NCBI GenBank assembly: GCA_963727485.1
Contig: CAVSGM010000011.1
Location: forward strand, 672,001 to 736,000
Source of the DNA: an uncultured delta proteobacterium
Lineage (GTDB): Bacteria; Myxococcota; Myxococcia; SLRQ01
Length of the DNA: 64,000 nucleotides
Reading direction: 5' to 3'
Under the pieces are notes generated by a model. It ran no database searches and was not told the DNA's origin. It was given only the letters and a program-made list of their open reading frames with translations. Of this stretch, positions 48,963 to 63,512 are shown piece by piece. Numbering within the stretch: position 1 is the stretch's first letter; the number at the start of each line of letters is the position of its first letter. Position numbers and translations under genes: made by a program.

Positions 48963-49892
48963 TCACGGGATTGCCGAGGCCACCCGGGCGGCGACATCCG
49001 TAAGGTCCCGGGCGCCGCCGACGGCCCCGGCGGCCCGGCCCGCGCCGAGGAACGGCACCGGGCCCAGGGTGTGGGTGCGAGTGCCCAGATTCTCCACGTT
49101 TCCGTGGTCGCTGATGACGAAGAGGGTGTCGGTCGGCCCCAGGGCGCCGGCGCAGGCGGCGAGCGCCCGCTGGACCTCGGAGACCCGGGCCCGGGCGGCG
49201 GCGTGGTCCCGTGCGTGGCCCGCCTTGTCGGTGAGGAAGTACTCGAAGAACGAGAGGTCGAAGCGCCTGGCGGCGGCGGCGAGGCGGCGGCCGGCCTCCT
49301 CGGGGGTCAGGGGCTCCGGGGGCAGGCCCCAGCGCGCGGCCCCGGCCCCGGTGAGGGAGTGGGGGAGGGCGTGGCCGGCGAGGACGTCCTCGAAGGTGTG
49401 GAAGGCGAGGCCGGCGGCCCGGGCGGCGACGGTGCTCGCCGGGGGGCGGGCGAGGCGCGCCGGGACGTGGACCTCGGGCTCGGGGAGGGTCCTCGGGCTC
49501 ACGGCACGGACCCCCAGGGCCTCGAGCCAGAACCTGGGGTAGGCGTTGAGGACGGCGACCCGGTGCCCGTCGGCGACCGCGCGCTTGAACAGGTTGTCGG
49601 CCTCGAGGAGGGCGATGAGCTTCTTGCCCGGGAAGCCGAGGCGGTGGCCGCCGAGGTGCGCCGCGGCGTTGACCCCGGTGAGGATGGCGGTGTGGCCGGT
49701 GGCGGACTGGGGGCGGCCGGCGACGCCGAGGGTGGCGTCCACCAGCTGGACCCGGGCGCCTTCCGGGAGCGGGCCCGGCGGGGTGCCGTCGGTGAAGTGG
49801 GCCAGGAGCCCGGGCTCGGCGGCCAGGGGGTTCACCGCCGGGTCGCCGACCCCGGCGCCGAGGCCGTCGACGAGGACCAGCAGGACGCTCAT
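48963..49892 (-). CDS. Alkaline-phosphatase-superfamily metalloenzyme (phosphoglycerate mutase-like)
   Basis: VLVDGLG, PQSATG, TDKAGH, SDHGN, HT. Confidence 0.82.
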   Translation of the reverse strand: MSVLLVLVDGLGAGVGDPAVNPLAAEPGLLAHFTDGTPPGPLPEGARVQLVDATLGVAGRPQSATGHTAILTGVNAAAHLGGHRLGFPGKKLIALLEADNLFKRAVADGHRVAVLNAYPRFWLEALGVRAVSPRTLPEPEVHVPARLARPPASTVAARAAGLAFHTFEDVLAGHALPHSLTGAGAARWGLPPEPLTPEEAGRRLAAAARRFDLSFFEYFLTDKAGHARDHAAARARVSEVQRALAACAGALGPTDTLFVISDHGNVENLGTRTHTLGPVPFLGAGRAAGAVGGARDLTDVAARVASAIP

Positions 49893-51446
49893 GACCTTCG
49901 GCCGTGGCCCCCGCCGCCGGGGGTGCCGACGACCAGGACGTCCCCGGGCTCGACCTCGAGGCGGACCTTCCCGGGCAGCTCGGTCTCGGTGCCGTCGGCC
50001 TTCAGGAGCCGGTCGTGGCCCCTGGCCCCGGGCTGGCCCCCGGCGAGGCCCGGCGGCGGGTGCCTCCGCCGCTCGCCGATGAGGGTCGCGGTGGCGGGCT
50101 CGAGGAACCGGTAGGCCCGGCTCACCCCGTCGCCGCCCCGGTGGGCCCCGGCGCCCCCGGTCCCCCGGCGCAGGCGGTACCAGGCGACCTGGAGGGGGTA
50201 GGCGTGCTCGAGGGCCTCCACCGGGGTGTTGAGGGTGTTGGTCATGTGGCTGTGGATCCCCGAGGCCCCGTCGAAGCCCGGGCCGGCGCCGGTGCCCCCG
50301 CCCACCGTCTCGTAGTAGGCCCAGGGCGCGGGATGCGGTGCCCCCGAGGGCGACGTTGTTCATGGTCCCCTGGCTGGCGGCGGGGATGCGGTCGGGGAGG
50401 GCCTTGGCGAAGGCCTGGAGGAGCACGTCGACGAGGCGCTGGCTGGTCTCCACGTTGCCGGCGGCGACCGGGGCGGGGTACCGGGCGTCGACCACGGTGC
50501 CGGGCCTCGTCCGCACGGTCACCGGCCGCATCATCCCGGTGGAGGCCGGGAGGTGCTCGGGGGCCAGGAGCCGGAGCACGTAGAGGACGGCGCTGACGGT
50601 GATGGCGCGGACGGCGTTCACCGGGCCCTCGACCTGGGGGTCGCTCCCGGTGAGGTCCACGGTGCACCCATCGCCGTCGACGGTGACGGCGACGCGCAGG
50701 GCGATGTCCTCGGTCCCGAGGCCGTCGTCGTCGAGGACGTCCTCGGCCTCGTAGCGCCCGTCGGGGATGGCGGCGAGGACCGCGCGCATCATCCGCTCGG
50801 CGTGATCGGTGAGCCCGGCCATGGCGCCGCGGACCTCGGCGGCGCCGTAGGTCCCGGCCAGCGCCTCGAGGCGCCGGGCCCCGAGGCGGCAGGCGGCGAG
50901 CTGGGCCTCGAGGTCCCCCTCGCGCTCCACCGGCGTGCGCACCCGGTCGAGGAAGCGCGCGCGGACGAGGTCGCGGTCGAGGATGCCGGCGGTGACGATC
51001 TTCTCCGGGGGCAGGCGTACCCCCTCGTCGTCGATGTGGCGCGAGAGGGGCATGGAGCCGGCGGCGGTGCCGCCCACGTCGGCGTGGTGCGCCCGGTTCA
51101 CCAGGTACCCGAGCACCTGGCCGTCCACGTAGAGAGGCTCGACCACCGTCAGGTCCGGCAGGTGGGTGCCGCCCCGGTACGGATCGTTCACCCAGGCGAC
51201 GTCGCCGGGGCCGAGCGCCACGTCCTCGAGGACCGCCGCCAGGGCCAGGGGCGTCGACCCCAGGTGGACCGGGATGTGGGCCGCGTGGGCGACCATCTCC
51301 CGGTCGGCGCCGAAGAGGGCGCAGGAGAAGTCCCGGCGCTCCTTGATGTTCGGGGAGAACGCGGCGCGCATGAGCACCGCGCCCATCTCCTCGGTGAGCG
51401 CCGCGAAGAGGTGGCGCCAGACCTCGAGGGCGACGGGGTCGTCCAT
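49889..51446 (-). CDS. Hydantoinase B / oxoprolinase family subunit, frameshift ~50330
   Basis: SPNIKERRDFSCA, NDPYRGGTHLPD, GNVETSQR, MTNTLNTPVE, TPGGGG. Confidence 0.92.
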
Positions 51447-55694: not shown

Positions 55695-56135
55695 ATGCGA
55701 CCCGCGCGCCTCGCCGCCCTCGTGGCCCTCTGCCTCGCCGCCGGCTGTGCCCACGGTCGGGACTTCTACTTCGACCACCTCTCGGACCACGCCCGGGCCC
55801 AGTACGCGAAGTACCAGCAGTTCTTCACCGAGCACCAGAAGACCCACTACCTGCGCCTGAAGACCGACGACGCCCGGGACCGGTTCGTCGACGGCCTCCA
55901 CATCCCCGAGCGCCTGGCGAGGTACCCCAAGTTCGTCCGGGACGCCATCTGGGACCAGCGGGTGGTGGTGGGCATGGACGAGACCGCGGTGATCCTCGCC
56001 GTCGGCCCCCCGGACCGGGTGGACCACGGCGCCGACCCCGCGAGCCCCACGGTGGACCGGCAGGTGTGGACCTGGGACCGGCGCCACCTCACCGCGCACT
56101 TCGTCGACCACAAGGTCTCCGAGGTGGACCCGTGA
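55695..56135 (+). CDS. Hypothetical lipoprotein with SmpA/BamE-like C-terminal motif
   Basis: LAAGC lipobox; VVVGMDETAVILAVGPPD. Confidence 0.65.
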   Translation: MRPARLAALVALCLAAGCAHGRDFYFDHLSDHARAQYAKYQQFFTEHQKTHYLRLKTDDARDRFVDGLHIPERLARYPKFVRDAIWDQRVVVGMDETAVILAVGPPDRVDHGADPASPTVDRQVWTWDRRHLTAHFVDHKVSEVDP

Positions 56136-57010
56136 CCGGCGCCCTGGCCACCGTCTCCTTCGTGGCCGAGCTGGCCCCGGTCGCCCCCGACACCCTCGAG
56201 GGCGCCTACCTCCACCTGGGCGCCGTGGACCAGGCCCGGGCCGCCTTCGCCGCCCGCCTCGCCGACGAGCACCGGCGCCTCGAGGACCGCCGGGCCTACG
56301 TCCTCGGGAGCCTCTCCGCCGCCCGGCGCTTCCTCGACGACGACGCCCCCGAGGGGGGCGAGGGCCTGGTGGCCGTGGAGGACGAGACCCGGGGTCAGCT
56401 CGAGGCCGCCGCCCGGGAGGTCGAGGCCTGGGCCGAGGCCGAGGGCGCCGCCCTCGACGCCGCCTGGGACGCCGCCGTCTCCGCCGTGGAGGACCGGTGC
56501 GCCGCCTACCTCTCGCACCACGTCCCCGAGGTCCGGGTCACCGTCCACCGCCTCGCCGGGGGCCGGCGCATCGTCCACCTCGCCCGCCCCACCCGCGACG
56601 ACGCGGTCCTCCTCTGCGCGCTCCTCGCCGGGCGCCCGCCCCTGCGTCACGCCTTCCTCGAGGACGACGCGGTGGACGCCGTCGACGGTCCGGTGCACCT
56701 CGCCGTGCGCACCGGCGACGTCGATCCCGAGGCCGTCACCAACCGGGGCGCCGAGGCCGAGGACGCCCTCGCCGGCGCCAGCGCCCCGCGCCTCTTGCCC
56801 ATCCGCGCCCACCTCCCGGTGCACCTGCCCAAGGTCGAGTGGCCCCACCTGCGCCTCATGGCCCGGGGCCCGGTCCTCGAGCTCGAGGCCCGCGCCGAGG
56901 GGGCGCCCTATGAACACGTGGTCTCCGAGGCCGACGCCGAGCTGTTCACCGGCTACCTGGTGAGCCTCCGGGTCCGCGGCCGCCTCGCCGTCGAGGTGGA
57001 GATCGAGTAG
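56132..57010 (+). CDS. Hypothetical protein
   Basis: GTGA overlap with upstream gene; host-like codon usage; 3' part of ORF 53816..57010. Confidence 0.65.
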   Translation: MTGALATVSFVAELAPVAPDTLEGAYLHLGAVDQARAAFAARLADEHRRLEDRRAYVLGSLSAARRFLDDDAPEGGEGLVAVEDETRGQLEAAAREVEAWAEAEGAALDAAWDAAVSAVEDRCAAYLSHHVPEVRVTVHRLAGGRRIVHLARPTRDDAVLLCALLAGRPPLRHAFLEDDAVDAVDGPVHLAVRTGDVDPEAVTNRGAEAEDALAGASAPRLLPIRAHLPVHLPKVEWPHLRLMARGPVLELEARAEGAPYEHVVSEADAELFTGYLVSLRVRGRLAVEVEIE

Positions 57011-57049: not shown

Positions 57050-57841
57050 ATGCGCCGCCTCGTCCTCGTCCCCCTCGCCGCCCTGGTGGCTGCCGCCTGC
57101 GGCCCCCTCGGCACCACCGGCGCCGGGACCCAGAAGCTCTCGGTGGGCACGGTGCTCGCCACCCCGCGCCTCGAGGACCCAGCCGGCAACCCCATCCAGG
57201 ATCCGGTGGTGAACGCCGACGTGTTCTACGGCGAGCGCGAGATTGGCGTCCTCCCCTCGACGCCCCCCACCGGCATCCCCGGCGCCAAGGTCACCGAGCA
57301 CCTCTTCGACGACGTCGCCGGCACCGTGAAGCAGGTCCCCTTGAACGACCAGCAGACCGGCCACTACACCGCCGACTCGACCGCCTCCCCGGACCTCGGC
57401 CCCTACGACGCCCAGGCCGAGTACCGCACCGAGATCGAGGACGACCAGCCGACCCCCTACGTCCTCGACGCCACCACCGTCCCCACCCCCGAGACCCCCC
57501 AGGGGGTGCCGGCGACCCAGCCGAGCGGCGTCGACCTCGACGTCCAGCGTACCGGCACCGACATCGCCTTCATCACCGTGTTCAACCTCGACGGCGGCAC
57601 CGCCACCGAGACCTGGACCAACCTCCCGGTCACCGAGGTCGACGCCCTGGGCACCATCGCCGACCCCAGCCCCTACCAGGCGGCGAGCTTCACCATCCCC
57701 GGGGGCCAGGCCTTCCCCACCGCCGGCACCTACGCGGTGGTCCTCTACTCCGTCGCCCGGCAGGTCCCCGACACCAGCCTCGGCGGCGGCTCGGGGATCT
57801 GGGTCGGCGGCGGCGCCGCGGTCGCCCTGACGGTCCAGTAG
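57050..57841 (+). CDS. Hypothetical acidic beta-rich lipoprotein
   Basis: GGAG RBS; LVAAAC lipobox; Thr/Asp-rich. Confidence 0.75.
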   Translation: MRRLVLVPLAALVAAACGPLGTTGAGTQKLSVGTVLATPRLEDPAGNPIQDPVVNADVFYGEREIGVLPSTPPTGIPGAKVTEHLFDDVAGTVKQVPLNDQQTGHYTADSTASPDLGPYDAQAEYRTEIEDDQPTPYVLDATTVPTPETPQGVPATQPSGVDLDVQRTGTDIAFITVFNLDGGTATETWTNLPVTEVDALGTIADPSPYQAASFTIPGGQAFPTAGTYAVVLYSVARQVPDTSLGGGSGIWVGGGAAVALTVQ

Positions 57842-57850
57842 GAAGGCGCC

Positions 57851-60406
57851 TTGGCCCTGCGGATCCAGGCGAAGCGGCGGCTCATCGCCCTCTCGGCGGG
57901 CCTGGTCTCGGGCCTGGTCTGCGCCGGCCTCGCCTTCGCCCACTGGCGGCCGCTGGAGCGCCTCGACCTCCTGGCCTACGACGAGCTGGCCCAGTTCGCC
58001 GAGGACCCGGGGCAGGCCGACAAGCAGGTCCTGCTGGTGCAGATCGACGACGAGAGCCTCGCCTGGGCCTCCCGGGAGCTGTCCGCGAGCTGGCCCTGGC
58101 CCCGGGAGTTCTACGGGGTGATGGCGCGGAGCCTGCGCCAGTGGGGCGCCAAGGTGGTGGGCTTCGACCTGGTCTTCGCCCAGAGCCAGGGCGACGGGTG
58201 GTCCGACCTCGAGTACTTCCGCGACGACCTGAAGCAGGCCGGCCACGTGGTCCTCGCCGCCTCGCTCTCCCGGGGGACGCCCACGCCGCCGCCGAAGGTC
58301 GACCACGGGGTGCGCCTCGGCCACTTCGCCACCGCCGCCGAGGCCCGGGACAAGGCGGTGGTCCTGGTGAGCTTCGGCCACCGGGCCTACGTGGCGCCTT
58401 CGGCGGGCGGGGGCTTCGACGTCTGGGCCGGGGGCTACGACACGGCGGACGGCGCCGCCGGGGCCATCGCCCGCATCGGCGCCGCCCTCCAGCCGGTGGC
58501 CCCGAAGCTGGTCCCCGACGCCAGCGCCGCTCTCGACCGCCCGGCCTTCGTCAAGGCCCTCACCGCCCGCCTCGTGCCCCGGGCGGGGACGGTCCCCGCC
58601 GGCGCCCGGCCGGTGACCGGCGCCGCGCTCCTGAAGGACCGCTTCGCCCTGGGCGCCTACTCGGCGGCGGACCTCGCCCGGCAGCGCCTCCCGGTCGCCG
58701 ACGTGGGCACCCTCCCGGCGGCCCTCTTCCTCGGCGCCGCCGGGGGCGTGGGGATCGTCGACGAGACCCCCGACCCCGACGGAGTCCTCCGGCGCTTCCG
58801 CCCCTTCACCGACTTCCAGGGCGCCCTCTACCCCTCGCTGCCCCTGGCCATGGCGCTGGCCGGCGACCCCGGGCACCCGAGGGCCCAGGTGGTCCCCGGC
58901 CTCGCCTCGGTGGGCCGCTTCCACCTGCCCGTCGACGCCGGGGGGGCGGTGGGCATCCGCTTCCACGGCGTCCACCCCTACGGCGGCGGGATGGGCGGCG
59001 GGATCCCCGCCTGGCGCATCCTCCACGACGCCGCCCTGGCCCAGGAGGGCAAGGCCGGCACCCTGGACCACCGCCTGTTCAAGGGCCGGTACGTCCTGGT
59101 GGGTCCCAAGGCCGCGGGCCTCCTCGACCACAAGCCCTCCCCGGTGAGCGGCGACCACCTCGGGGACGACATCAACGCCGCCGCCCTCGACGGCATCCTC
59201 ACCGGCCGCTACGTCCGCCGGATCCCCGACTGGCTGGCGGCGATCCTCTCGCTCCTGGTGGCGCTGGCCTCGGTGATCGCCGCCATGGCCGCCTCCACCC
59301 GCTTCACCCCCACCACCCGGGGCACCTTCGGCGAGGTCCTGCGCCTCTTCGCCCGGGCGCTCCTCACCGCCGGCGCCGCCATCCTGGGCTTCGCGCCGGT
59401 GCTGGGCCTCGCCTGGCTCCTCTACGCCCACGCCGGGTGGTGGACCGGCCTGGCGCTCCCGGGGGTCGCGGCGTTCGGCGGGGTGTCGCTCAACTACGTG
59501 GTCTCCGAGTTCCTCGAGCGCCGGGACCGCCGGGCGATCCACGAGGCCCTGGGCATCTACACCAGCACCCTGGTCGCCGACCTGGTGGCCTCGGGCGGGG
59601 TCCACGCCCTGGACCCCAGGCGCGACGAGGTCACGGTGTTCTTCTCGGACATCCAGGGGTTCACCAGCTTCTCGGAGAAGATGGACCCGGAGCGCCTCGC
59701 CACCCTCCTCGGCTACTACCTCACCGAGATGACCGACGAGGTCCTGGCCCACGAGGGGATTGTCGACAAGTACATCGGCGACGCGGTGATGGCCTTCTGG
59801 GGCTGGCGCGAGACCCAGCCCGACCATGCCCTGCGGGCGGTGCGCTGCGCCCTGGAGATGCAGGCGCGCCTGGCGCGCATCGGCCCGGCGATCCTCCGCG
59901 ACTACGACGTGCAGCTGGTCACCCGCATGGGCATCAACTCCGGCGCCGCGGTGGTGGGGAACCTGGGCTCGGAGCAGAAGATGAACGTCACCCTCATGGG
60001 CGACACGGTGAACCTCGCCAGCCGCCTCGAGGGGGCCAACAAGGCCTACGACACCCGGGTGATGATCGGCGAGGAGACCTGGCGGCGCCTGGACGGGGCC
60101 TTCGCCGTCCGCGAGCTCGACCTGCTGCGGGTCAAGGGCAAGGCGAAGCCGGTGCGGGTCTTCGAGCCGGTGTGCGAGCGCGGGGCCCTCGGGGACGACG
60201 ACCGGGCCTTCCTCGAGGCCTGGGAGGCGGCGCTGGCACGGTACCGGGACGCGGACTTCGCCTCGGCCCGGGCGGCCTTCGAGGCCCTCCGGGACCTGCG
60301 CCCGGACGACGGGCCCCTGAAGGTCTACCTCGAGCGCTGCGAGGCCTTCCTCGCCGCGCCCCCGCCCCCGGACTGGGACGGGGTCTTCGTCATGACCCAC
60401 AAGTGA
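57851..60406 (+). CDS. CHASE2-domain class III adenylate cyclase with SPOR-like insertion
   Basis: CHASE2 (IDDESL, WPWPR, GFDLVF, DPDGVLRR); TMs; FSDIQGFT, DKYIGD, TLMGDTVNLASRLE; C-terminal TPR-like tail ending DWDGVF. Confidence 0.92.
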   Translation: MALRIQAKRRLIALSAGLVSGLVCAGLAFAHWRPLERLDLLAYDELAQFAEDPGQADKQVLLVQIDDESLAWASRELSASWPWPREFYGVMARSLRQWGAKVVGFDLVFAQSQGDGWSDLEYFRDDLKQAGHVVLAASLSRGTPTPPPKVDHGVRLGHFATAAEARDKAVVLVSFGHRAYVAPSAGGGFDVWAGGYDTADGAAGAIARIGAALQPVAPKLVPDASAALDRPAFVKALTARLVPRAGTVPAGARPVTGAALLKDRFALGAYSAADLARQRLPVADVGTLPAALFLGAAGGVGIVDETPDPDGVLRRFRPFTDFQGALYPSLPLAMALAGDPGHPRAQVVPGLASVGRFHLPVDAGGAVGIRFHGVHPYGGGMGGGIPAWRILHDAALAQEGKAGTLDHRLFKGRYVLVGPKAAGLLDHKPSPVSGDHLGDDINAAALDGILTGRYVRRIPDWLAAILSLLVALASVIAAMAASTRFTPTTRGTFGEVLRLFARALLTAGAAILGFAPVLGLAWLLYAHAGWWTGLALPGVAAFGGVSLNYVVSEFLERRDRRAIHEALGIYTSTLVADLVASGGVHALDPRRDEVTVFFSDIQGFTSFSEKMDPERLATLLGYYLTEMTDEVLAHEGIVDKYIGDAVMAFWGWRETQPDHALRAVRCALEMQARLARIGPAILRDYDVQLVTRMGINSGAAVVGNLGSEQKMNVTLMGDTVNLASRLEGANKAYDTRVMIGEETWRRLDGAFAVRELDLLRVKGKAKPVRVFEPVCERGALGDDDRAFLEAWEAALARYRDADFASARAAFEALRDLRPDDGPLKVYLERCEAFLAAPPPPDWDGVFVMTHK

Positions 60407-60420
60407 TCTAGGATGCCGAC

Positions 60421-60939
60421 ATGACTCGTGGCATTGCCCTGGGGACGATCCTCACCGCCGCGCTCGTGGGGTGGGGGCCTGCCGGCGTCGCCCGCGCCGA
60501 CGGGGGGAAGACCGAGGCGCCCAAGACCGCCAAGGTCGCCGAGGTCCGGGCGTTCATGATGAACGCGCCCCGGCGCTTCGCCCGGACGGTGGCGGTGGTC
60601 CACGCCGGCGACGAGGTCCAGCTCGTCACCCAGGTCAAGGGCGCCGACTGGTTCCAGGTGCGCTTCAAGGGCAAGCGCGGCTACCTCCCGCTCCAGGCCC
60701 TGGCGTCGGGGGCCTACGGCCTCCGGGCGGGCTCGGGTCGCGGCGCCGCCAAGACCACGGGGAGCTCGGTGCAGCTCGCCGCCCGGGCCTTCGGGCCCGA
60801 GGTCGAGACGAAGTACCAGGGCGAGCACCCGCAGGTCGACTACCAGCTCGTGGATGCGGTGGAGGCGGCGGTCCCCACGCCCCACCAGGTCCAGCGCTTC
60901 GCCGCCGCCGGCGGGGTGAAGCTCGGGGACGGCAAGTGA
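60421..60939 (+). CDS. Exported SH3(b)-domain protein
   Basis: Signal peptide; VHAGDEVQL...DWFQVRFKGKRGYL. Confidence 0.75.
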   Translation: MTRGIALGTILTAALVGWGPAGVARADGGKTEAPKTAKVAEVRAFMMNAPRRFARTVAVVHAGDEVQLVTQVKGADWFQVRFKGKRGYLPLQALASGAYGLRAGSGRGAAKTTGSSVQLAARAFGPEVETKYQGEHPQVDYQLVDAVEAAVPTPHQVQRFAAAGGVKLGDGK

Positions 60940-61958
60940 AGCGCCTGGTGGTCCTCGCCGCGGCCCTCGCCGCGCTCCCGGGGTGCAAGATTGTCAGCGC
61001 CGCGGCCACCGGCATGGCCAACGGGGTCAACCAGATCGTCGCCAAGCCCTGCGAGAACGGCGTCGGCGGCAGTCTCCAGGGCTCCTGCGCGGGGATGAAG
61101 CAGGCGGCGGAGAACGATCCCGCCCAGGCCTGCACCCTCTTCACCCCCCTCGAGGGCTACTACATCGGCCGGAGCGCCACGGCCACGGTGCTCGCCACCA
61201 AGTTCGACAACCACGTGATCTGGCTCGACGGCCAGGGCGCGAAGGCCCGGCCCACGGTGGCGCTGCGCTACCTCGACGACCTCGCCTCGGTGATCATCGC
61301 CGCCGCCGAGCGCACCCGGAAGAAGGGCGCCGCCGAGCGCGACCCGGGGACCTTCCGGGTGGCGGTGGTCGACTCGGACGCCCCCAACGCCTGGTCCACC
61401 CCCGGCGGGTTCACGGTGATCACCACCGCGATGCTGCGCCTGGCCCACTCCGAGGACGAGGTGGCGGCGATCCTGGCCCACGAGATGGGCCACGTGGTCC
61501 TCTGCCACGGACTCAAGGCCATCGTCGCCGACCGCCGGCGCGCCGGCTACCGCCAGGCGGTGGAGAGCGCCGCCGAGGCCAGCGACCTCTCGTTCTTCGC
61601 CCACGCCCTCGGCGACTTCACCGACAGCGTGGTCACCGCCATGGACCGCGGCTACGAGCCCGACTGGGAGCTCGACGCCGACGCCCGGGCGGTGCGCATC
61701 CTCGAGGCGGCGGGCTACGATCCGAACGCCCTGAAGACCGTCATCGCCCGGCTCCAGACCTGGCACACGGCCCACAAGTCCGAGAAGAGCATGGCCGACA
61801 CCCACCCGCCGGCGACCGAGCGCGAGAAGGCCATCGGCAACCCCCCGTCGCCCCAGGTGTCGAAGCGCGCCGAGGCGGTGCGGGCGAGGCGCTTCCACCG
61901 GGACCTCCAGGTGCCGCTGGCGAAGCTGGCGGGTGACAAGGCGACCGCGCGCCGGTAG
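60936..61958 (+). CDS. M48-family metalloprotease lipoprotein
   Basis: GTGA overlap; ALPGC lipobox; PNAW..PGG, AHEMGH, ELDAD, THPP. Confidence 0.9.
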   Translation: MKRLVVLAAALAALPGCKIVSAAATGMANGVNQIVAKPCENGVGGSLQGSCAGMKQAAENDPAQACTLFTPLEGYYIGRSATATVLATKFDNHVIWLDGQGAKARPTVALRYLDDLASVIIAAAERTRKKGAAERDPGTFRVAVVDSDAPNAWSTPGGFTVITTAMLRLAHSEDEVAAILAHEMGHVVLCHGLKAIVADRRRAGYRQAVESAAEASDLSFFAHALGDFTDSVVTAMDRGYEPDWELDADARAVRILEAAGYDPNALKTVIARLQTWHTAHKSEKSMADTHPPATEREKAIGNPPSPQVSKRAEAVRARRFHRDLQVPLAKLAGDKATARR

Positions 61959-61968
61959 GAAGACGGCG

Positions 61969-62715
61969 ATGGATCTGCCCAAGTGGTTCGGAGGCAAGCT
62001 CACCGGCGCGTCCCTCGGCCTGGCGGTCGGGGGGCCGGTGGGTGCGGCGGTGGGCGCGGTGCTCGGCCACGCGGTGGATCACCTCAACCGCCCGGAGGAC
62101 CCGAGCCCGATGGCCAGTAGCGACCCGCGCCTGCACTTCGCCACCCACCTGGTGGCCCTCTTCTCGGCGCTGGCCCACAGCGACGGGCCGGTGCGCCGGG
62201 AGGAGGTGGCGGTCATCCGCGCCTTCTTCCGGGACGAGCTGCGCCTCGGCGAGTCGGACCTCCAGGTCATCCGCCAGCTCCTCAAGGCCTCGCTCTCCCA
62301 GGACGTCGACGTCGCCGAGGCCTGCGGCTACTACCGGGCCCACTCCCGCCCCGCGGAGCGTCACCTCTTCGTCCAGGCCCTCTACGAGCTGGCGCTGGCC
62401 GACGGGGACATGACCCAGGGGGAGCAGGCCTTCATCAACGGGGTGGTGGTCCACCTGGACATCAGCGAGGCCGATCACCACGCCATCCGGACCCTCTTCT
62501 TCAGCGAGCCCAGCCTCGAGGCCGACTACGCGCTGCTGGCGGTGGAGCCGGGGGTCGACGACGTGGCGCTGAAGAAGGCGTTTCGCACCCTGGCCGCGCG
62601 CCACCACCCGGACAAGGTCACCCACCTGGGGCCCGACGCGGTGGCCCTCGCCGGCCGGCGCTTCGCCGAGATCAAGGCCGCCTACGACCGCATCCGGGTC
62701 GCCCGGGGCCTCTGA
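61969..62715 (+). CDS. djlA: DjlA-like co-chaperone (TerB-like plus J domain)
   Basis: N-terminal Gly-rich TM; AHSDG and ALADG TerB motifs; HPD in J domain. Confidence 0.82.
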   Translation: MDLPKWFGGKLTGASLGLAVGGPVGAAVGAVLGHAVDHLNRPEDPSPMASSDPRLHFATHLVALFSALAHSDGPVRREEVAVIRAFFRDELRLGESDLQVIRQLLKASLSQDVDVAEACGYYRAHSRPAERHLFVQALYELALADGDMTQGEQAFINGVVVHLDISEADHHAIRTLFFSEPSLEADYALLAVEPGVDDVALKKAFRTLAARHHPDKVTHLGPDAVALAGRRFAEIKAAYDRIRVARGL

Positions 62716-62720
62716 CGCCG

Positions 62721-63512
62721 ATGGCCCAGCCCCCCGTGTCCCAGGTCCCGGACCCCACCGTGGCCCCGGCGGATCCCGCCGAGCGCCGCCGCCTCCTCCG
62801 GGAGGGGCTGTGGGTCTGGGGCTTGAGCTTTGCCCTCCTCATGGTGGGCAGCTACGTCGTCGGTCCGGCCGTCCCCTGGGTGGCGAACAACCTGAAGACC
62901 GTGGCGGTGCTCGTCTTCCTCTACCTGCCCGGGTGGCTCCTCTGGAAGCGCGGCGAGACCTTCGCCGACTACGGGCTGACGCTGAAGCACTGGAAGCGGG
63001 ACGTGTGGCTGGCCCTCAAGCTCTCGCTGGTGATCTTCCCGGTGTTCATCCTGCTCTTCTGGGGCTTCGTGCTGGTGCTCACCCACGTGCCCGAGCCCTG
63101 GCGCAGCGATTCGGCGCCCTACACCCAGGGCCTGAACCCGGGCCTGCGCCTGCCGCCGCACTTCCTGCTCCTGGTGCTCACCCACTTCCTGGTGGTGGCG
63201 CTCCCCGAGGAGTTCTTCTATCGCGGGTTCATCTACGCCCGGCTGGCGGCGGGCTTCGACGAGCTGAAGCGGGCGAAGTGGATCTTCGGGATCCCCGTGG
63301 GCCCGGCGTTCTGGCTCACCGCGGTGCTCTTTGCGCTGGGGCACCTCACCGAGCCCTACCCCTGGCGGCTGGCGGTGTTCTTCCCGGCGCTGGTGTTCAT
63401 GTGGCTGCGGCTCAAGACCGGGACGATCGTGGGGGACACGATCTTCCACGCGTTGTCGAACCTGACGGTGGCGGTGCTCGAGGCGTGCTTCTTCGGGCAC
63501 CTGGGGCACTGA
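62721..63512 (+). CDS. CPBP glutamic-type intramembrane protease (myxobacterial MrtC-like)
   Basis: EEFFYRG, FALGH, RLAVFFP, FHALSN. Confidence 0.85.
   Translation: MAQPPVSQVPDPTVAPADPAERRRLLREGLWVWGLSFALLMVGSYVVGPAVPWVANNLKTVAVLVFLYLPGWLLWKRGETFADYGLTLKHWKRDVWLALKLSLVIFPVFILLFWGFVLVLTHVPEPWRSDSAPYTQGLNPGLRLPPHFLLLVLTHFLVVALPEEFFYRGFIYARLAAGFDELKRAKWIFGIPVGPAFWLTAVLFALGHLTEPYPWRLAVFFPALVFMWLRLKTGTIVGDTIFHALSNLTVAVLEACFFGHLGH

Follow-up and report, generated by a model that had tools for sequence, protein, structure and literature searches.

A SPOR-like insertion within the CHASE2 sensor of a conserved, unannotated cyclase family of the Myxococcota

What is a segment resembling a SPOR domain doing in the middle of the CHASE2 sensor of an adenylate cyclase, and could it bring this receptor into contact with the cell wall? 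The question is raised by a gene on the forward strand of a 64,000-nucleotide (nt) stretch of DNA (hereafter the window) in contig CAVSGM010000011.1, from an uncultured member of the Myxococcota (assembly GCA_963727485.1), for which a first-pass annotation made from the sequence had proposed a peptidoglycan-binding domain inside the sensor. As set out below, the receptor is a new combination of known parts, i.e., a member of a conserved and unannotated CHASE2-SPOR cyclase family. The gene and the parts of its product, with positions given in the window and in amino acids (aa) of the protein, are the following (pLDDT, predicted local distance difference test; pTM, predicted template modelling score):

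57851..60406, forward strand: gene for a CHASE2 - membrane helices - class III adenylate cyclase protein (851 aa, TTG start)
57878..57946, forward strand: N-terminal membrane helix, aa 10-32 (hydropathy)
57929..59266, forward strand: CHASE2 periplasmic sensor, aa 27-472, broken by the insert (Pfam; model with pLDDT 89.6 and pTM 0.89)
58304..58486, forward strand: SPOR-family core beta1-alpha1-beta2-beta3-alpha2, aa 152-212 (Pfam, models, profiles)
58487..58591, forward strand: helical add-on, aa 213-243, then a short predicted fourth strand with the conserved R244, aa ~244-247 (models, alignments)
59219..59506, forward strand: C-terminal membrane helices of the sensor, ~aa 457-552 (hydropathy; the last helix by eye, sub-threshold)
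59618..60151, forward strand: class III cyclase domain with D600, K640, D644, T714, N721 and R725 intact (Pfam, alignment)

The sensor is recognized by Pfam as CHASE2 (PF05226, E-value (E) 3e-38, 132 bits against a cut-off of 26.3) flanked by membrane helices, and the output domain as Guanylate_cyc (aa 590-767, E 1e-24). The peptide singled out in the first-pass annotation is in frame with the open reading frame 57851-60406 (+), begins at aa 152 (nt 58304) and lies between two flanking CHASE2 motifs, VVLA at aa 133 and DPDG..RR at aa 308. In the window protein, 227 aa separate two CHASE2 motifs, and among the 41 insert-bearers in which this spacing was measurable it amounts to 200-228 aa in 40 (the value of 497 in the 41st comes from a mis-picked motif); in a comparison set of 24 other CHASE2 proteins, 22 have a spacing of 82-145 aa and two of 171 and 184. 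The segment is thus not ordinary CHASE2 sequence, as could have been objected, but a true insertion within CHASE2.

The relationship of this insert to SPOR domains is indicated first by its predicted fold. A single-sequence model of the insert (pLDDT 75) has the order beta-alpha-beta-beta-alpha-beta and, when compared with 48,161 chains, is placed nearest to the SPOR domains of CwlC (Z 10.2, root-mean-square deviation (rmsd) 1.7, 71 residues aligned) and RlpA (Z 9.7, rmsd 2.0, 73 aligned), followed by 6ozd (Z 8.8), a chain that itself matches the canonical SPOR profile (E 0.007); the first non-SPOR fold comes at Z 7.5. With the same model, Foldseek gives 6ozd, DedD and CwlC as its top three. 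A model of the whole sensor, built from a multiple sequence alignment (MSA) of 55 sequences, reaches the pLDDT and pTM listed above, and its residues aa 148-251 again lead to CwlC, RlpA and 6ozd (Z 7.2-7.9; next 4.8), so that in both models the predicted fold of the insert in the periplasmic region is nearest to solved SPOR domains.

At the level of sequence, SPOR (PF05036) is the best Pfam match of the excised insert, in line with the first-pass proposal, but with 17.1 bits (E 0.007) it stays below the 21-bit cut-off of this hidden Markov model; the cut-off is reached by two of 14 rescanned trimmed orthologue inserts (21.8 and 25.1 bits), and 13 of 52 inserts match the Pfam model at E<=1. As a control, 27 canonical SPORs of the same phylum were aligned, taken from 30 loci after three near-duplicates or shorter ones had been dropped, and the resulting profile was validated on CwlC, FtsN, RlpA, DedD and DamX. 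This control profile gives at least 8 bits to 18/52 inserts, as against 0/52 reversed and 0/1040 shuffled sequences, and HHalign relates all 52 inserts to the canonical SPORs at 89.7% (E 1.9e-6), and 13 cores chosen as most SPOR-like at 97.6% (E 3.5e-12). In the other direction, stand-alone canonical SPOR proteins at four loci are also picked up by a profile made from inserts only, and a core profile run against PDB sequences has CwlC at its top, weakly (E 0.096). A point against SPOR identity is that the 52-insert profile retrieves no SPOR chain from the PDB sequences at E<=10. Searches of the PDB sequences by phmmer with the insert and with the whole sensor gave no meaningful match, an ESM Atlas search with the insert no usable match, and an NCBIfam scan no match; with the whole sensor, Foldseek returned nothing at E<=0.001, its CHASE2 core resembling no solved fold above Z 4.8. 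Fold, profiles and orthologues nevertheless give good support to the descent of the insert from SPOR domains, and they agree with the motif spacing on a SPOR-like domain within the CHASE2 sensor of an adenylate cyclase, as had been proposed.

Its boundaries are another matter: of the initial extent, 58304..58485, the start holds and the end does not, as the fourth strand reaches ~aa 244-247 (~nt 58591) in the MSA-based model. This strand is put at aa 219-221 by the single-sequence model and at ~aa 242-247 by the MSA-based model and the alignments, and its position in the window protein is less sure because the two models disagree. Most orthologues pass directly from helix 2 to the fourth strand, whereas the window's family has ~26 extra, mostly helical residues there (one alignment is mis-registered in this region of the family, and two others were used for it). 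The helical add-on is confined to the window's family and its close kin, and aa 213-232 are modelled with a pLDDT of 66-68.

The insert is widely but unevenly distributed. A six-sequence profile has matches in 207 of 368 genomes of the class, and the 52-sequence profile in 196 of 401 genomes of the phylum (11 candidates were scored per genome, zero counts mean "not found", and genome tallies include one unpublished genome, G276, on which nothing else depends). By family, the latter profile matches 180/185 genomes of f2, 9/10 of f5, 1/1 of f10 and 2/4 other genomes of f1, the family of the window; the matches in f3 (2/64, one of them real) and f6 (1/23, spurious) are few, and it was found in 0/10 genomes of four further families of the same class and in 0/103 genomes from elsewhere in the phylum. 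Among marginal profile matches judged by eye, those in G151, G021 and G011 are real, those in G080, G130 and G076 are unrelated, and four are stand-alone SPORs. A pattern search of genome contigs with one orthologue gave 39 loci, mostly matched through the cyclase part. The database matches carry names from Archangium, Cystobacter, Myxococcaceae, Myxococcales and metagenome-assembled genomes of Myxococcota or Deltaproteobacteria, and judging by these names f2 is most likely the Myxococcaceae. CHASE2 is labelled in 38/38 of the database match rows, cyclase in 36/38 and SPOR in 0/38, i.e., the insert is invisible to routine annotation. In the literature on SPOR, CHASE2 and myxobacterial cyclases, searched without most subscription journals and with no direct query for SPOR plus CHASE2, no description of the architecture was found.

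The insert cyclase is mostly single-copy, although several f5 genomes have two; in the f5 pairs of the sampled genomes (L128, L131, L133, L141) a catalytically intact subtype is paired with a degenerate one. A quick tree was made of CHASE2-cyclases from which the insert had been deleted, with an outgroup that was small and without most same-family paralogues; in it, 30 insert-bearers lie on one side of a branch and 17 others on the other (Shimodaira-Hasegawa-like approximate likelihood ratio test (SH-aLRT) 97), a topology consistent with, and not proof of, a single origin of the insert. Recent horizontal gain of the insert was considered and is ruled out by this tree together with the gene-like G+C content at third codon positions (GC3), which is 0.99 across the whole cyclase gene, insert included.

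Does the insert still bind glycan? According to PMC6895207, the side chains of Q270, R302, R309 and R311 in RlpA touch the glycan, only the Gln being highly conserved; the RlpA-glycan contacts are mostly main-chain, and the basic patch of SPOR domains is kept though its residues vary, while in DamX a Trp and a Lys on beta4 serve glycan binding. With equivalences taken from the profile alignment and from the numbering of that paper, RlpA Q270, R309 and R311 correspond to R155, D190 and W192 of the window protein, and the beta1 aromatic of RlpA, F274, to F159; R155, F159, Y180, D190 and W192 would all lie on strands equivalent to the glycan-binding strands of canonical SPORs. The residue counts given here are descriptive, as the 52 inserts come from related genomes.

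Many of these counts weigh against glycan binding of the canonical kind. The Gln site is Q in 27/27 canonical SPORs and in 2/52 inserts (R 28, L 10, K 5, F 4, Q 2, S 2, A 1), and Gln is found at this beta1 site in one of 33 database proteins having a residue there. The Arg pair of beta3 is present in 27/27 and 26/27 controls, as opposed to 10/52 and 0/52 inserts: the R309 site has E 20 and R 10 and is acidic in the window protein itself (D190), and the R311 site is almost always aromatic (W 46, Y 5, L 1). At the F274 site just 18/52 inserts have F or Y, the median net charge of the inserts is 0 versus +4 in controls, a net charge of at least +3 is reached by 1/52 inserts versus 25/27 controls, and in 14/52 inserts none of four face positions is basic. 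To these points may be added that the helical add-on would be located where a loop of FtsN partly occludes the site, as described in PMC6895207. Judged by its residues, the insert fails to show the canonical denuded-glycan signature.

Glycan binding is thereby weakened, since the equivalents of Q270, R309 and R311 are replaced and not conserved as in canonical SPORs, but it is not refuted, since contacts are mostly main-chain and the residues of the basic patch differ between SPORs. The inserts have in fact a pattern of their own, with Arg or Lys at the beta1 Gln site in 33/52, F/Y/W on beta2 in 49/52, W/Y on beta3 in 51/52 and Arg on beta4 in 40/51; mean information is 2.04 bits in the insert core versus 2.3-2.4 in CHASE2 proper, W192 being among the most conserved positions of the core. 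Binding to denuded glycan, the function first suggested for this domain, has thus lost its canonical Gln/Arg residues, while main-chain contacts and alternative basic and aromatic residues leave room for it.

The reading favoured here, tentatively and stopping just short of calling it probable, is that the insert is a divergent SPOR which grips the cell's own wall glycan via a remodelled face, coupling the state of the wall to cyclic AMP (cAMP); a little over half of the weight given to this reading goes to a true preference for denuded strands, i.e., to the septal idea of the first-pass annotation. In such a receptor, R155 (beta1), Y180 (beta2), W192 (beta3) and R244 (beta4), together with the unchanged backbone of beta1, would stand in for the canonical Gln/Arg patch. 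The insert is predicted to pack on the CHASE2 body and not to be loosely tethered (the sensor model with pTM 0.89), which would allow the state of the wall to be passed to the cyclase: the CHASE2 dimer and the membrane helices would be shifted when wall glycan is bound or displaced, be it through stripping by amidases or through movement between membrane and wall, and this shift would in turn switch the cyclase. Because affinity and selectivity for denuded glycan are likely altered, targeting is not taken to be strictly septal. The two Amidase_3 proteins and the 22 matches for cyclic nucleotide monophosphate (cNMP)-binding in the genome, which also has 14 cyclase-like matches, are counted in favour of wall binding; elsewhere, CHASE2 receptors are encoded beside wall-binding LysM proteins, according to PMC5192318.

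The output side differs among families. D600, K640, D644, T714, N721 and R725 of the window protein are what we take to be the two metal-binding Asp, the adenine-type Lys/Thr and the transition-state Asn/Arg of class III cyclases. The window protein has all six, as do 13/52 orthologues overall (f1 3/3, f5 3/6, f10 1/1, f2 6/42, one f2 sequence row being frameshifted or truncated), and the transition-state Asn is kept in 17/52; some class III cyclase variants work without this Asn. From these residues, the window receptor is likely an active adenylate cyclase, and the f2 receptors are likely often weakened or non-catalytic. As so few f2 orthologues are intact, cAMP output is not everywhere the conserved function, which counts against coupling to cAMP as a general role. 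The f2 orthologues (L091-L127) represent a near-universal gene in which the full catalytic set is rarely kept, likely a pseudo-cyclase lineage. Also observed was a second CHASE2 cyclase of the window's genome (L001:1099-3942), which has its own, non-SPOR expansions of CHASE2 and is near cNMP-binding genes (G000:C11:968761-969888). The broader proposition, that a near-universal myxobacterial receptor reads its own peptidoglycan, as stripped strands or wall-membrane strain, via a re-tooled SPOR and turns it into cAMP, or into a non-catalytic signal in many Myxococcaceae, is less likely than not.

The main rival explanation brings in the genes upstream of the cyclase:

57050..57841, forward strand: lipoprotein of no known family (no Pfam match; unnamed Myxococcota clusters in Atlas)
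56132..57010, forward strand: unknown protein without signal peptide (no Pfam match; 29/40 orthologue loci)

According to this explanation, glycan binding was lost and the SPOR fold was co-opted as a putative protein-docking face formed by Trp/Tyr, for which the lipoprotein encoded next to the cyclase is the most plausible periplasmic partner, or else the second subunit of the receptor dimer. We regard this as a real possibility, though on balance not the one to be expected. It would account for the loss of the canonical glycan residues while an aromatic is fixed (W/Y in 51/52). The lipoprotein adjoins the cyclase in 28/40 orthologue loci (several of the 40 run to contig ends) despite a change of orientation, being co-directional with the cyclase in f1 and divergent in f2, often with an Asp directly after the lipidated Cys, and no copy was found next to the 49 cyclase loci that lack the insert (flanks short for 10). 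In addition, the CHASE2 cyclases of S. meliloti answer a protein signal via the outer-membrane NsrA, as given in PMC13001267. However, the lipoprotein, which is found in 185/309 genomes of the class, is present in 151/190 f2 genomes compared with 180/185 for the insert; it is missing from some genomes that have the insert cyclase, and it also occurs in genomes without a detected insert (G001, G004, family f7). The lipoprotein is not an obligate partner of the insert cyclase, and the gene neighbourhood does not assign the contact to the insert.

A relic is much less probable: the insert would be a former wall anchor whose binding was lost and which is retained for CHASE2 packing. While its confident, fixed orientation in the model, the much drifted surface positions and the many orthologues with degenerate catalytic sites would fit such a view, the insert is retained in 180/185 genomes of f2, 2-3 Mb (megabase) genomes included, it has conserved residues where those of canonical SPORs point outward, and the CHASE2 of paralogues folds without it.

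No better placed is the prey-wall sensing that the first-pass annotation had set beside the septal idea, in which the insert would detect soluble peptide-free glycan fragments from prey or neighbour cells and make the cyclase a predation sensor. SPOR homology is in its favour, and the hosts of the insert include genera which we take to be predatory (proteins named from Archangium, Cystobacter). Yet the insert is present in small genomes and was not found in the 103 genomes from elsewhere in the phylum, which presumably include predators; fragments would need to pass the outer membrane before reaching an inner-membrane receptor, and the canonical binding residues are changed, so that prey sensing by the cyclase is unlikely.

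Hardly credible, and largely refuted already, is that the insert is an unrelated ferredoxin-like domain with a convergent likeness to SPOR, for although the Pfam SPOR score of the window insert is sub-threshold and the weak PDB matches of the 52-sequence profile are gelsolin and CutA, such a view is opposed by CwlC and RlpA as best fold matches, by the HHalign value of 97.6%, by the two inserts above the Pfam cut-off, by the control-profile scores (18/52 versus 0), by the stand-alone SPORs retrieved and by CwlC at the top of the core profile.

Downstream of the cyclase, the following genes are found:

60421..60939, forward strand: exported bacterial SH3-like protein, in the same gene run (SH3_3 E 1.6e-4, sub-cut-off; 3/40 loci)
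60936..61958, forward strand: M48 family metallopeptidase lipoprotein (3/40 insert loci)

An SH3b plus M48 pair as a SPOR-specific cell-wall cassette was considered and rejected, M48 being found at 7/10 loci without insert versus 3/40 with it. M48 flanks these seven of ten same-class CHASE2 cyclase loci as a general CHASE2-cyclase companion and is not insert-specific; it recurs, the SH3-like protein being detected in some, at CHASE2 cyclases with or without insert (L008, L010, L011, L013, L015, L017, L018). One literature search on the theme of CHASE2 cyclase, SH3 and peptidoglycan found nothing, and a promoter scan returned 0 sites. After the cassette, at 61933-63512 of the window, are a DjlA-like TerB-DnaJ gene and a gene for the myxosortase MrtX (221 bits, cut-off 180). 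In the f2 loci L092, L093, L094, L124 and L125 the cyclase is convergent with a thioredoxin-like 2Fe-2S ferredoxin gene, downstream of which are genes resembling, by eye, NADH dehydrogenase subunits. Further away, at 48963-51446 on the reverse strand of the window, a hydantoinase B/oxoprolinase frame spans profile positions 1-369/519 and then enters a metalloenzyme gene; the segment 49889-50305 resembles the missing tail of hydantoinase B in another frame, possibly through a frameshift or an assembly error.

The inputs of CHASE2 are poorly known, and the sensor model is without a solved CHASE2 relative in the PDB; in 2016, the signals were described as "not known at this time" in PMC5192318. 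The receptor, conserved and single-copy in a family of which some members are in culture, offers a concrete, mutable hypothesis with four residues and one deletable domain. Should wall binding be true, wall remodelling or envelope stress would be linked to myxobacterial cAMP signalling, and an adenylate cyclase gated directly by the cell wall would give a CHASE2 receptor a defined input; if wall binding is false, the insert would be a clear example of the SPOR fold put to another use. As SPOR is a promiscuous module, the surprise is limited.

Comparison with known systems places the insert near, and apart from, the SPOR domains of CwlC (1x60), RlpA (6i05/6i0n), FtsN (1uta), DedD (6ztg) and DamX, with which it shares the fold, the beta1/beta3 pattern, homology and the periplasmic location. 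In contrast with canonical SPORs, which sit at the end of a linker, the SPOR of the window sits inside another domain; its Gln is replaced by Arg and its Arg pair by Glu/Asp and Trp, the charge is neutral, and in the window's family a helical add-on precedes beta4. The receptor-type adenylyl cyclases CyaA and CyaB of M. xanthus, which belong to the same group and of which one might be the orthologue of the window gene, are reportedly osmotic-stress sensors (work by Kimura et al.), which would fit a wall-tethered receptor. The architecture of CHASE2, membrane helices and class III cyclase is shared by CyaD1, CyaD2 and CyaK of S. meliloti, which are activated by a plant protein via NsrA and, compared by description, have no SPOR insert described in the accessible text of PMC13001267. 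A Burkholderia operon encoding a CHASE2 histidine kinase and a LysM-FecR protein likewise joins a CHASE2 receptor to a predicted wall-binding module, although there, according to PMC5192318, a protein of its own carries the wall module, and the signal leaves through a kinase. Finally, the membrane protein AdvA of Acinetobacter is far more divergent, with no CHASE2 or SPOR mentioned in the abstract of 10.64898/2026.04.03.716176, and is likened here by description only; its cyclase-like domain without catalysis has a role in the envelope, a precedent for the degenerate orthologues of the present family.

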